64,000 nt of DNA from a virus. Lineage: Duplodnaviria > Heunggongvirae > Uroviricota > Caudoviricetes. Below the pieces are notes generated by a model that had not been told where the DNA came from, searched no databases, and saw only the letters and a program-made list of their open reading frames with translations. The stretch spans positions 64,001 to 128,000 of the IMG/VR virus record IMGVR_UViG_3300037466_002980. One strand, 5' to 3'. Made by a program: the position numbers and the translations under genes. How positions within the stretch are numbered: position 1 is the stretch's first letter; every line of letters starts with the position of its first letter. Shown in pieces: positions 58,982 through 62,390 of the stretch.

Positions 58982-58984
58982 ATC

Positions 58985-59024
58985 AAAAAAAAAATGGTAG
59001 CAAGACTTTTACATCTTGCTACCA
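58985..59024 (-). terminator. Strong intrinsic terminator
   Basis: TGGTAGCAAGA-8 nt-TCTTGCTACCA followed by T10. Confidence 0.9.
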
Positions 59025-59235
59025 CCGAGTATATACTGGATTCCCCTGCAATGTCAAATTGCCCCAGTTCCCCCACCTATATAAAAGGTGCCACCGCGGT
59101 TACATTTCCATGATAGTAGAAAGTGCCGCGCCATGGGTTTTTAGCAGCATGTTGCCCGTTAACAGACATTTTTCACATAGGCCCCAAAACCCCACCATAG
59201 GTTCTCAACCGGCCCTATCAGGCCATATACTCAGC
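59025..59235 (-). ncRNA. Candidate multi-stem non-coding RNA
   Basis: GC-enriched intergenic stretch closed by GAGTATAT/ATATACTC pairing, with several internal stems, directly followed by the terminator. Confidence 0.55.
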
Positions 59236-59273
59236 AAACATCAACACACACCTCTTTTATTGTTCAACACACA

Positions 59274-60194
59274 TTAGACAGTACCGTGAGGAACCATCTT
59301 CAATCTAGCTTTCTTTTGTCTATCGTTCTTTTCAAGTTGCTTTTGAGCTTCTTCAAAGGTCATACCCTGGTATTCAAGTTGGTTATTGCTAACCCGAACC
59401 AAATCATACAAATTATCGGACGATGTATTGGTATCGACTGGTGCCGGAGAAACGTCTTGAACTGCCTTTGTAAAGGCTTCTGCCGGATCTCCATTAACCT
59501 GTCCAACTACCGTATATTTGCAACAACGACCTTTTGCACCATCATAATCCTTCGGAATACTAACTACATCAGCAGGATTAATTTTCAAAATCATAACAGG
59601 CTCATCTTGAGAACCGAAATGATTCAAATAAGTTTCGCTGCAAAAATGCAATCCTGCAGAACAATATGAATCGGGATTATCGTCAACTAAATTTCGTGAC
59701 ATAGAAACAGTTTGCCCAACACTATTATCATATGTGCCACTATGAATATCTTTATAATCCTTACGAACTCTCTTATAGGCCAAGAAATGTCCATCGCTTG
59801 TAATAGGCAATTTATTCTTTTCAAGGAATCCATACATTTGATCAACTGATCTCTTCGAAGGATTTTCCATAAGGTTTTCCATGAAACGAACCATCGGATC
59901 AATAGGAAAACCATCTTGATACATTTCAATCATTCGTTGAGCAAGCGAGTTATGGAACTCAACACCCTTCCACATAACCTTATTACCAACAATTGAAACA
60001 AAACCTTGTCCAAAATTAACAAGAGCTTTCTTAGGTTCAACTAGATCACGCAAAGTGTCCCAATCTTGATTCTTTAATGCTTCAAGAATCTTCACATAAG
60101 AAATATGTGTATCTTTATTAATGGTATGACTCTTATTGTCTACCACAAGGATAATATTCTTACCTTGAATAAGATACGGAACGGGTTCAGTCAT
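59274..60194 (-). CDS. rIIB: rIIB-like protein
   Basis: PITSDGHFLAYKRV, MSRNLVDDNP...CSAGLH, INPADVVSIP.DY and KGRCCKY; start moved to ATG 60194. Confidence 0.9.
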   Translation of the reverse strand: MTEPVPYLIQGKNIILVVDNKSHTINKDTHISYVKILEALKNQDWDTLRDLVEPKKALVNFGQGFVSIVGNKVMWKGVEFHNSLAQRMIEMYQDGFPIDPMVRFMENLMENPSKRSVDQMYGFLEKNKLPITSDGHFLAYKRVRKDYKDIHSGTYDNSVGQTVSMSRNLVDDNPDSYCSAGLHFCSETYLNHFGSQDEPVMILKINPADVVSIPKDYDGAKGRCCKYTVVGQVNGDPAEAFTKAVQDVSPAPVDTNTSSDNLYDLVRVSNNQLEYQGMTFEEAQKQLEKNDRQKKARLKMVPHGTV

Positions 60195-62334
60195 TTTGTT
60201 TCTCCTGTTTATCAATTAGGTTGATGTAATCTACCATTTTTATATCCGGTGCACCAGTTATATATTCAATCATTGGATATCTGGTCTTAATTTTTGATGC
60301 AGCATTCTTTAATTTTTCTCTCACATCGCCAATTACAATTTGATTTCCAAATCTTTTACAAATAGTAAGTAATACTCCAGATTTAATGTTTTTCTCTATT
60401 TTCTTCTTCTTAAAAATCTTAGATTGCTCCAAAAATGGAGAATCTATCGATAACTTTGTAATTGATGTTGATTCAACTATAGCTTTAACGTTATTATAAA
60501 ACTTATCATATGTACTGTCAATATTTTCTGAAATCATCATTTGTTCTATATAATCCGAAGAAATCTTTGAAACAATTTCTTTCGCTTTAGTTTCAAAGGG
60601 GATCCAATTCGGAAGATCTTTAATCTCTTTTATCTTACCTTTACGAACACCCCAAATTTGAATTTCAGACAACTCCTTATAACCACTGGAATCAAGATCA
60701 GCCTTGATCCCAAATACATCCATAGAACTACCGTCTAGATATGATGCTTCGAAATTACTTAATTCGATATAATAATAAATAGTCTTATCATCGATAACAA
60801 AATTATCAATGGTCCAGGTATAATCTTCCCGATTAATATATCGAGAAGTTCCTTTTCTATCTAATTTAAGAATTCCATTAGCAGTAGGTGTCTTTTTCTT
60901 GGGTTCAGGTTTTTCTAACGAAGAAGCTTTCACAATCACCGGAGGATTATGAAGTTCCTTTAGGAAGGAATTAACACATCTTTCTTGATCTTCTGGTAAG
61001 GTAGCAGTGCTGGAAATACAATAAATATTTCCTCTAAAATCAGTCATCTGTTGATAATGATATTTGGCTCTATTTCCACAACCAGTTTTTAAATCATTGA
61101 TGACAAAAACCGTTGGCAATTGAACTTGTATGGAACGATACATAATATTCGTTCCTTTCTGCCAATCGTGTTCTTTATCCATTGTAAGATTATACGATTG
61201 GTGCGGGGAAACATACAATCCGGTAATTTCCAGGCCACGCTTCTCAAGTTCCTCTTTAGAGAACTTAAAAATCTTCTGGCCGTGATATTTTGTAATATCG
61301 ATTAATTCAAATTTGGTATTTGTAACATAGGCGGTAACCGCTGCCGACCACAAATGAGAACCGTATCGTACCGAAAGAAATTCTGCACGAGCCCATTCAT
61401 TTTGAATTTTATCAGCTTCGTTTGCCAATACAGAAACAAGATTGTTATTAATTGCTTCAAGCTTCGTTTTGATATTATTAATAGTCAGTGGAACATAACT
61501 AAGTTCTTCTCTAGAAGCTGCAAAGTCCAATTCACCGATATTGAATTCTATAACCAATCCGCAGTCTAAAAGTTTTTCTAAATTCCCGAAATGTTTCTTA
61601 GCTTCGGGAACATTCAAGAGATAGCAGATATTACCCATAATTGCATAGGAGTCATATCCATCGATTGAGTGGACACCGGGAACAATATCTCGATCCCGAT
61701 ATTTAACATCTTTAATCTCGATAATTTTTCCAGTAATTTTTGGTCTTAATTTAAACCACTGAAAAACCTCCTGAGCATAGTGCTCAAAAGAATGATAATC
61801 ATATTGATTTACTACACTAAATTTAACTTCTACACCATTTTCCTCATCGGTATCGGTTTCACTCATTCTGGCAACCGACGGAACACCATTTTGGTTAATG
61901 AAAGCAGTATAAATTCTTTTCTTACCGTCCTTAACAGCAGTAACGGTAAAATTTTCAGTGTAACTAAAGGGGGACTTAGAACCCAAACCAAGTGCTCCAA
62001 TAAAATCATTGGAATTTGTTTTGGTAGATTCAAAATAAGTGGTATAAATGTTTGTAACCTGATCGTGATCAAGACCAATACCAAAATCACGAACGGAGAA
62101 CCAAGGCTCTAATACAAAAGGAAGATGAACTTCAAAAGGAACATCACCTTTTCCTGCAGCAACATGACTATCAACTGCATTACAAGATAATTCACGAATG
62201 ATAGCTTTAATCTTATTAGAATAAAGTCCATCTGATAGAATCTTGAATGCTTTTGCAGAATTTCTAATACGAAATTCGCCAACATTAGAAACATTATTTA
62301 ATGTAACTTCCTGTGTATCGACTTCAAGCTTCAT
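60187..62334 (-). CDS. rIIA: rIIA-like protein with GHKL ATPase N-terminus
   Basis: LYSNK..AIIRELSCNAVDSH, VRDFGIG, GALGLGSKSPFSY and SREELSY; adjacent to rIIB. Confidence 0.92.
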   Translation of the reverse strand: MKLEVDTQEVTLNNVSNVGEFRIRNSAKAFKILSDGLYSNKIKAIIRELSCNAVDSHVAAGKGDVPFEVHLPFVLEPWFSVRDFGIGLDHDQVTNIYTTYFESTKTNSNDFIGALGLGSKSPFSYTENFTVTAVKDGKKRIYTAFINQNGVPSVARMSETDTDEENGVEVKFSVVNQYDYHSFEHYAQEVFQWFKLRPKITGKIIEIKDVKYRDRDIVPGVHSIDGYDSYAIMGNICYLLNVPEAKKHFGNLEKLLDCGLVIEFNIGELDFAASREELSYVPLTINNIKTKLEAINNNLVSVLANEADKIQNEWARAEFLSVRYGSHLWSAAVTAYVTNTKFELIDITKYHGQKIFKFSKEELEKRGLEITGLYVSPHQSYNLTMDKEHDWQKGTNIMYRSIQVQLPTVFVINDLKTGCGNRAKYHYQQMTDFRGNIYCISSTATLPEDQERCVNSFLKELHNPPVIVKASSLEKPEPKKKTPTANGILKLDRKGTSRYINREDYTWTIDNFVIDDKTIYYYIELSNFEASYLDGSSMDVFGIKADLDSSGYKELSEIQIWGVRKGKIKEIKDLPNWIPFETKAKEIVSKISSDYIEQMMISENIDSTYDKFYNNVKAIVESTSITKLSIDSPFLEQSKIFKKKKIEKNIKSGVLLTICKRFGNQIVIGDVREKLKNAASKIKTRYPMIEYITGAPDIKMVDYINLIDKQEKQND

Positions 62335-62361: not shown

Positions 62362-62390
62362 ATTATATATACATCGCTAATTTGCGTCAA
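62362..62390 (-). promoter_or_regulatory. sigma70-like promoter for rIIA
   Basis: TTGACG-17 nt-TATAAT. Confidence 0.8.

Follow-up and report, generated by a model that had tools for sequence, protein, structure and literature searches.

The window analysed here is a stretch of 64,000 nucleotides comprising bases 64001–128000 of a 362,810-bp IMG/VR jumbo-phage genome with direct terminal repeats (record IMGVR_UViG_3300037466_002980). On its minus strand, the rIIB gene is followed by a gene-free stretch of 292 nt (59273..58982), bounded by the stop codon of rIIB (59274) and the ATG of the next gene (58981). A preliminary description, made from the sequence of the window alone, noted that this stretch is richer in G+C than its flanks and suggested that it encodes a discrete non-coding RNA. 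The former is correct, the G+C content being 0.45–0.47 compared to approximately 0.31–0.36 in the flanks. As for the latter, the stretch contains a conserved RNA of about 193–215 nt, encoded on the gene strand and closely followed by an intrinsic terminator. Its complex fold is supported by covariation in 56 distinct homologues. The tip of one of its hairpins, P7, is a palindrome existing in several versions, and two copies of the RNA probably associate through this tip. The features of the locus are collected in Table 1.

Table 1. Features of the RNA and of the surrounding locus. Positions refer to the window unless another locus or genome is indicated.
Feature	Position	Strand	Comment
RNA core, P1 5' strand to P1 3' strand plus a 3-nt tail	59025..59233	-	Full-length match to covariance model R1
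P1, 5' strand AGUAUAU	59225..59231	-	Pairs with AUAUACU (59034..59028); 6/7 pairs change on both sides, 96% of cells paired
P2 hairpin GGCC/GGCC with loop L2	59211..59224	-	100% paired, 4/4 pairs covary; stacked directly on P1
P3, 5' strand CCUAUG	59196..59201	-	6 bp, long-range, with UAUAGG (59081..59076); 100% paired; 3 pairs invariant (CCU/AGG), 3 covary
Long irregular arm P4-P5-P6-P7	59133..59195	-	Helices 97-99% paired; 18/19 pairs with changes on both sides
P7 hairpin	59153..59168	-	Tip palindrome GUUAAC (59163..59158), centre UUAA
P8 arm with loop L8	59096..59129	-	99.9% paired; 5 pairs invariant, 6 covary
L2-L8 loop-loop pairing	59220..59215 with 59116..59111	-	UGAUAG (L2) with CUAUCA (L8), 6 bp
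P9 mini-hairpin GG ... CC	59087..59095	-	2 pairs, none changing on both sides; weakly supported
Junction J3/10, G-run (UGGGGGA here)	59069..59075	-	Near-invariant, unpaired columns
P10 ACUGG/CCAGU with loop L10	59035..59068	-	99.5% paired, 6/8 pairs covary; abuts the P1 3' strand
Extra L10 hairpin GCAAU/AUUGC	59062..59048	-	Followed by a second conserved GGGGAA (59046..59041)
Intrinsic terminator	58985..59026	-	Stem 59024..58995, 12-14 bp including G.U; loop GUAAAA; T10 at 58994..58985; -18.3 kcal/mol
Two exact TGTGTGTTGA direct repeats	59241..59273	-	Between the rIIB stop codon and the RNA
rIIB	59274..60215	-	Directly upstream of the RNA; phrog_609 RIIB, E 9e-79; tblastn matches rIIB of jumbo phages
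cREC receiver-domain protein, 128 aa	58595..58981	-	Next downstream gene; PF20274, E 4e-23; phrog_1479; starts 3 nt past the T-run
Sigma-70-like promoter TTGACA-17-TATAAT	60493..60521	-	Inside the end of rIIA, upstream of rIIB; 12/12 match, consensus match only
Second sigma-70-like promoter	62390..62362	-	Upstream of rIIA; 11/12 match, consensus match only
Element of about 50 nt	L006:4690-4735, L047:1215-1260, L044:4400-4440, L079:4120-4165, L049:5600-5645, L072:2350-2395		
DUF2828 (TROVE-like) protein, about 489 aa	G000:C1:144590-145306		About 17 kb past the window end; conserved in 4/4 large relatives tested

Conservation and fold of the RNA

Starting from rIIB, 37 related IMG/VR loci were gathered; 16 of these proved by nhmmer to have the element downstream of rIIB, with an identity of about 70–75%. 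An exact scan with the invariant motif of P8 as the search pattern added 28 viral contigs and 57 metagenome contigs, and covariance model R1 matched all these copies over their full length. The resulting 56 distinct copies come from IMG/VR and JGI metagenome contigs and are all situated at the same place, in the order rIIA–rIIB–(orf130)–RNA–terminator, where brackets denote a gene missing from some loci. The final alignment (A5) consists of 62 rows, of which 56 are distinct, and its mean pairwise identity is 0.70. The window copy is the most divergent one (0.54 to the others), and R1 finds it with the score of 127.5 bits (cmsearch, E = 3.5e-35, model positions 1–193). There is one copy per genome, and no second copy is present in the 362,810-bp genome to which the window belongs.

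R1 produced no match in the more distant rIIB loci L016–L038. In L035, orf130 and p379 are kept, but a short unrelated hairpin is found where the RNA would be. Further, neither the window copy nor a consensus-like one gave a blastn match in cultured phages, and the exact scan for the P8 motif yielded zero matches in 185,579 prokaryote genomes; thus copies in hosts or prophages are lacking, as is any clue to the host. The source samples, judging by the contig sample identifiers, are freshwater, sediment, soil, rhizosphere and peat. As far as these sequence searches reach, the RNA is confined to one clade of uncultivated jumbo phages.

The fold was obtained with RNAalifold and by counting pairs, and the two agree. 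The closing helix P1 encloses two four-way junctions. It has 7 bp in the family and is lengthened to 59234/59025 in the window phage, so that the closing pairing CUGAGUAUAU/AUAUACUCGG of the preliminary description is present and its inner 7 bp are the P1 of the family. A conserved 9-nt junction separates P2 from P3, and the latter encloses the inner four-way junction with the P4–P7 arm, P8 and P9. Several other helices had been seen in the single sequence as well: GGCC/GGCC is P2, CGCGG/CCGCG with UUUCUA/UGGAAA is P8, both kept in the alignment of the relatives, and the long GGGUUUU/AAAAACCC pairing represents the P4–P5 arm in the form peculiar to the window. On the other hand, the proposed GGTT/AACC and CACCT/AGGTG stems are not kept in the relatives, and their bases form P3 and P9.

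The bases of the P8 internal loop, GGCACUU ... AAUGUAAC, are invariant, and so are the unpaired G-runs, GGGGAA, occurring in J3/10 and again in L10. In J3/10, the run reads ACGGGGAA in most copies. L10 exists in two forms, a loop of 5–7 nt containing GGGG, seen in most copies, and an extra hairpin followed by GGGGAA, seen in eight of the 56 copies including the window; the GCAAU/AUUGC stem noted earlier is this optional hairpin. Stop codons occur in all three frames of every copy, and there is no conserved open reading frame (ORF).

Compensatory changes on both sides are observed in 45 of the 64 pairs, and 98.5% of the 3513 pair cells of A5 hold standard pairs. When the partners were slid by 1–3 columns, pairing fell to 34–47%, and none of 500 shuffles matched any of the covariation measures. 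Hence the covariation check that had been suggested, on homologues downstream of rIIB, came out clearly positive. As for folding energy, the minus strand taken as a single sequence folds better than shuffles, although only modestly (z = −2.5, 2 of 200), and so does the plus strand (z = −4.2). As both strands beat the shuffles, single-sequence folding settles nothing. The strand is established by the excess of G.U cells over A.C cells in A5, 342 against 12: the fold belongs to the minus-strand RNA, and the opposite strand would lose about 10% of the pairs.

A scan for covarying columns outside the helices revealed one more interaction, between loops L2 and L8. Position 16 in L2 covaries with position 132 in L8 (G-C in 36 copies, A-U in 16, G-U in three), and the loops are complementary over 5–7 contiguous nucleotides in 53 of the 56 copies, whereas shuffled loops reach 5 nt in 5% of trials. 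There are at least seven covarying versions, including UUGUAG/CUACAG or CUACAA, UUAUAG/CUAUAA, UGAUAG/CUAUCA, UAGUAG/CUACUA and UGGUAG/CUACCA, and an additional base turns up in L2 and L8 jointly. On the evidence of this covariation, the L2–L8 helix ties the two four-way junctions together. Neither this pairing nor the palindromic tip of P7 had been noticed in the preliminary description.

The search for known relatives was negative. No match to Rfam 15 (4227 models) was found in the whole window at the gathering threshold. With E-values up to 10, the 451 nt around the element produced two chance-level matches only, both on the terminator, and 13 homologous loci produced none on the RNA. ARAGORN reported no tRNA or tmRNA gene in the 64-kb window. 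Moreover, L10 reads UGGGGUG or GGGGAA and is not a T-loop, and no CCA follows P1. The Rfam and ARAGORN results thus bear out the opinion that the RNA belongs to none of the tRNA, tmRNA, RNase P and hammerhead classes. Full-text literature searches returned no description of the RNA. Resemblances to the sarcin–ricin motif, the CsrA site, the 11-nt GNRA receptor, the B12 box and the ACGGGGA of ydaO/ykkC-like RNAs were considered and dropped, since none of them fits and none is backed by a model. By every search run, both the fold and the family are new.

The palindromic tip of P7

In 55 of the 56 copies, the tip of P7 has a perfect palindrome as its central tetranucleotide, compared with the chance expectation of one tetranucleotide in 16. 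Eight palindromes are represented: UCGA (29 copies), UGCA (11), UUAA (5), GUAC (4), ACGU (2), CCGG (2), UAUA (1) and CUAG (1). A tree from which these columns were excluded requires at least 14 changes in the state of the tip; this tree is soft, the alignment being short, and the nine observed states by themselves require eight changes. The centre of the P9 loop, which serves as an internal control, is under no palindrome constraint.

The two middle bases of P7 are neighbours and cannot pair within one chain, and hence their covariation points to pairing between copies. According to ViennaRNA, the predicted gain of the P7 homoduplex over two hairpins is 15.4 kcal/mol, versus 2.6 kcal/mol with a GAAA centre, which we regard as a consistency check and not as proof. 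In OLE (loop L9.3) and GOLLD (loop L21a), loop tetranucleotides switch among palindromes, and symmetric contacts between chains at these loops were confirmed by cryo-EM (PMC12286853). The P7 tip displays the palindrome switching that was used as a criterion in that study, which supports the notion that the RNA works like OLE and GOLLD, not that it belongs with them. Judging by the sequence pattern and by this analogy, the RNA probably self-associates, two copies meeting at the P7 tip. Of the roles mentioned in the preliminary description, the self-pairing pattern favours a scaffold or particle over a decoy, sponge or ribozyme.

A palindrome may also be a signal in the DNA, such as a protein-binding palindrome, an origin or a packaging signal, with no RNA being involved. 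Indeed, the P7 tip is a 6-bp DNA palindrome (GTTAAC here), and the plus strand, as mentioned above, folds better than shuffles too. However, given the excess of G.U cells, the opposite strand or a cruciform would be deprived of about one tenth of the pairs, and the long-range P1 and P3 helices and the loop–loop pairing would be meaningless in duplex DNA. Moreover, the strict palindrome is limited to the four central bases; the surrounding stems keep G.U wobbles, and hence perfecting of inverted repeats at the DNA level is unlikely as well. A purely DNA-level signal is hardly credible.

Transcription and the neighbouring genes

The terminator predicted in the preliminary description is real. 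It is situated within a few bases of P1 in 55 of the 56 copies, with energies of about −9 to −23 kcal/mol, and approximately two thirds of its loops are GNRA. It begins past P1 and does not overlap it. In the window, this is the only strong minus-strand terminator downstream of both sigma-70-like promoters listed in Table 1. The ORF that precedes the RNA, rIIB or orf130, in nearly all loci has a stop codon which is 0–8 nt from P1 or overlaps it. A sigma-70 promoter positioned to start at P1 is seen in two of the 56 loci. In L095, a perfect TTGACA-17-TATAAT ends 4 nt before the RNA and is aimed at the first bases of P1, and hence the RNA there is a complete promoter-to-terminator unit. Promoter-like hexamers inside orf130 were not counted, as the key last T varies and they sit in conserved codons.

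Because 54 of the 56 loci lack a sigma-70 promoter aimed at P1, which directly adjoins the upstream stop codon, the RNA is most likely the 3' end of the rII transcript. It would mark the end of the early rII transcription unit and is probably made as the 3' tail of the transcript. Hence the initial claim of a discrete non-coding RNA stands in part: the RNA is structured, non-coding and encoded on the minus strand, as strongly supported by 56 covarying homologues, the G.U excess, the lack of a conserved ORF and the absence of Rfam and ARAGORN matches, whereas its discreteness is unproven, given the rarity of P1-aimed promoters.

Alternatively, the RNA might be a cis-acting element of the 3' untranslated region (UTR) of the rII mRNA, with no independent life. 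Such an element would shield the transcript from 3'-to-5' decay, or else adjust translation of the last ORF or its termination. The location at the operon's 3' end would agree with this, and so would the last stop codon, which abuts or overlaps P1 in nearly all loci, and the absence of an own promoter in most loci. On the other hand, the terminator hairpin alone normally protects the 3' end, and about 190 nt with invariant junctions, a kissing loop and a palindromic loop exceed that need. Moreover, the dedicated promoter in L095 would produce the RNA without any mRNA, and the more distant rIIA–rIIB phages do without the RNA, including L035 with its orf130 and p379. We consider this explanation improbable.

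The gene order is constant across the loci, rIIA–rIIB–(orf130)–RNA–(UGDH-like)–(p147)–cREC–...–p379, although the first gene downstream of the RNA varies from locus to locus. The orf130 gene, which encodes a conserved protein of 130 aa, separates the RNA from rIIB in about 45 of the 56 loci (for example, L010:4068-4475), its stop codon abutting P1. Neither PHROG nor the cultured phages contain a match to this protein, and Pfam gives none of significance (one sub-threshold match, E = 0.006). This gene is missing from the window phage. The two TGTGTGTTGA repeats, which are exact, as described initially, resemble the final codons of orf130 (...G V L K stop); compare the upstream flanks of the relatives, ending in ...GGUGUGUUGAAAUAG. 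Probably the repeats are a remnant of the lost orf130, whose last 15 nt or so would have been kept and duplicated in this phage.

The UGDH-like gene encodes a truncated UDP-glucose/GDP-mannose dehydrogenase-like protein of 285 aa (L010:4717-5577 and homologues), comprising the NAD-binding and central domains only. In most relatives it directly follows the terminator of the RNA and is itself followed by cREC; it is absent from the window. The cREC domain is predicted to process cyclic phosphates or ADP-ribose derivatives (PMC7824862). The pairing of these two genes is odd and fits the "NAD-centred conflict" genes of the same study.

Between the terminator and the UGDH-like gene, about eight distinct contigs contain a conserved element of approximately 50 nt, one per locus, which is absent from the window. 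It has two TAACGCCA/TTACGCCA repeats and the end ...CTAACGCCAYGACTTAKACA, and may be a promoter, an operator or another small element. In one relative, an ORF resembling an HNH/NUMOD3 homing endonuclease (L049:7051-7614; sub-threshold, weak Pfam matches only) is inserted downstream of cREC. In the window, an 11/12 sigma-70-like match, TTGACA-18-TATACT (59057..59028, minus strand), is made by the window-specific L10 hairpin and the P1 3' strand. It would start transcription inside the terminator stem, just upstream of cREC, which itself has no other visible promoter or Shine–Dalgarno sequence. This internal promoter is not conserved in the relatives, and we treat it as chance or as a peculiarity of this phage.

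The arrangement of the downstream genes suggests one more function, that of a cis-regulatory leader. Acting as a riboswitch aptamer, or else bound by a protein or an RNA polymerase antitermination factor, the RNA would then gate read-through of the terminator into the UGDH-like gene, p147, cREC and p379. Intra-operon antiterminator RNAs, such as EAR and put, do exist. The layout is classic: a conserved complex fold and a terminator are followed, in most loci, by genes 10–50 nt on, with a Shine–Dalgarno sequence and no promoter (for the next gene, this distance past the T-run without a visible promoter is seen in about two thirds of the loci). Moreover, the downstream block is coherent, and its cREC (PMC7824862) and truncated NAD-binding UGDH-like proteins invite a nucleotide-like ligand.

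However, the terminator is very stable and, as said above, does not overlap P1. Its arms pair with the own aptamer about as well as with swapped foreign ones (−9.35 versus −9.12 kcal/mol, z = −0.15), at scattered sites, and there is no conserved or co-evolving antiterminator. An apparent resemblance of the terminator arm (GGUAG) to L2 and P8 did not hold up. In L081, L074, L056 and L076, a consensus sigma-70 promoter is situated between the terminator and the next gene, and the RNA is fully conserved there; hence it does not serve merely for the control of the downstream genes. Further, the immediate downstream gene differs among loci, a palindromic self-pairing loop is not a riboswitch trait, and no Rfam riboswitch, EAR or other model matches. 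The block of the UGDH-like gene, p147, cREC and p379 is syntenic, but all copies come from one phage clade, and such synteny cannot separate linkage from function. On balance, a leader seems rather unlikely, and we keep it mainly for the factor-dependent variant similar to put and EAR, which needs no alternative pairing.

The RNA might be a self-cleaving ribozyme of a new class, which would detach itself from the rII mRNA by a cut at the beginning of P1 or close to it and leave a 2',3'-cyclic phosphate. Phage genomes commonly encode self-cleaving ribozymes. The complex fold with invariant junction nucleotides, the 5' edge situated directly after a stop codon with no promoter, and the cyclic-phosphate-processing domain encoded 1–3 genes downstream agree with this possibility. 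At the same time, no Rfam ribozyme model matches (hammerhead, twister, twister-sister, pistol, hatchet, HDV-like, hairpin, VS and glmS were considered), about 190 nt is larger than most self-cleaving classes, the sequence reveals no cleavage site, and the link to cREC is shared synteny in one clade only. A ribozyme is even less plausible than a 3' UTR element.

The RNA might also be a partner of a phage protein such as DUF2828 (TROVE-like), forming a ribonucleoprotein similar to those of Y RNAs and involved in RNA quality control or repair. All four large RNA-carrying genomes tested encode a DUF2828 protein, and Y RNAs are likewise closed by a 5'/3' stem. But the gene is 13–21 kb from the RNA in these four genomes and does not adjoin it, no canonical TROVE domain was found (PF05731 is absent), and there is neither an Rfam match to Y RNAs or Y-RNA-like RNAs nor a tRNA-like T-arm. 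Co-occurrence among close relatives sharing most of their genes weighs little. A partnership of this kind is very unlikely.

Possible function and comparison with known RNAs

The mechanism that we favour, with a probability of about one half as a whole, is action in trans: the 3' end of the rII transcript would persist as a stable RNA, pair with a second copy via P7 and act through its G-runs and the P8 loop. In this phage, it would be transcribed early as the last 240 nt or so of the rII transcript, started at promoters 62390 and 60521. The compact fold and the terminator would let this piece outlast the body of the mRNA, and cleavage or trimming within the A/U-rich linker that immediately precedes P1 would create its 5' end. 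The RNA would then form a symmetric dimer through the palindromic P7 tip, and a larger assembly is possible if the L2–L8 pairing is also intermolecular. The resulting particle would act in trans, presenting the invariant G-runs to a partner. A bolder version, which we put forward only tentatively, is a small protein-free self-assembling particle, where the symmetric P7 contacts and, if L2 and L8 pair "hand in hand" between chains, their pairing as well would give a dimer or ring with GGGGAA as a multivalent binding surface early in infection.

Several observations weigh against a trans-acting RNA. No partner or target emerged: GUUCCCC, the complement of the G-run, is about as frequent in the phage genome as expected and does not occur at ribosome-binding sites. 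As only two of the 56 loci have a P1-aimed promoter, a separate species would require processing. A tetraloop is cramped for a 4-bp kissing contact, and dimerisation may need opened closing pairs or an extended duplex; the predicted P7 duplex energies, in turn, ignore the concentration and the remainder of the fold. Finally, the next gene beginning shortly beyond the T-run without a promoter in about two thirds of the loci has the look of a cis-regulatory leader, too.

New RNA classes with a complex fold supported this well, that is, by 56 distinct sequences, 45 covarying pairs, a tertiary loop–loop helix and a signature of inter-chain contact, are rare, and earlier ones have repeatedly led to new biochemistry, such as riboswitches, ribozymes and RNA cages. 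At about 200 nt, this RNA is small enough for direct structural and biophysical study. Moreover, it is encoded at the rII locus, the function of which has been a matter of debate from the 1950s on. If the RNA self-assembles, RNA-only quaternary structure is not restricted to giant RNAs, and a particle would be the smallest natural RNA-only quaternary assembly and the first one linked to the rII locus of jumbo phages. Should the RNA regulate the downstream genes for cREC and the NAD-binding protein instead, the phage would encode a sensor placed ahead of genes predicted to act in counter-defence.

Known systems resemble the RNA in part. Like terminating riboswitches, EAR and put, it is a conserved RNA with tertiary structure followed by a terminator and then by genes on the same strand. 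Unlike them, it has no alternative pairing of the terminator, no family match and a palindromic loop, and it is kept despite an intervening promoter. With Y RNAs and YrlA it shares the 5'/3' closing stem and a phage-encoded TROVE-like DUF2828 protein; in contrast to them, it is not adjacent to the DUF2828 gene and has no tRNA-like module and no model match, the Ro-binding stem not having been examined in detail.

By its sequence features, the RNA is similar to small RNAs derived from 3' UTRs, such as CpxQ and SroC, in that it directly follows a stop codon, shares the terminator of the mRNA and usually has no promoter of its own. However, those RNAs are short and loosely structured and act by Hfq-dependent seed pairing, whereas here the fold is compact and globular, the junctions are invariant and no target motif is enriched.

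In phi29 pRNA, two complementary covarying loops pair between chains "hand in hand", building a ring. The RNA described here is likewise phage-encoded, of similar size and, by our prediction, transcribed early, and it has a 5'/3' closing helix and two complementary covarying loops. It differs from pRNA in having no Rfam match and two four-way junctions instead of a three-way junction, and no link to the packaging motor was found. Its carriers, among them the 363-kb phage of the window, are jumbo phages with rIIA and rIIB, not phi29-like podoviruses, and the L2–L8 pairing may form either within a chain or between chains.

The "ornate" RNAs OLE, ROOL and GOLLD form protein-free homo-oligomers (PMC12286853). 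The RNA has no sequence or model similarity to them and is three to four times smaller (193–215 nt versus roughly 580–830 nt), and it is situated at the 3' end of the rII operon with no adjoining tRNA genes; its oligomerisation is predicted from the sequence only. What it has in common with these RNAs is a complex fold, heavy covariation support and one loop with switching palindromes, and it is encoded by phages, as ROOL and GOLLD are.

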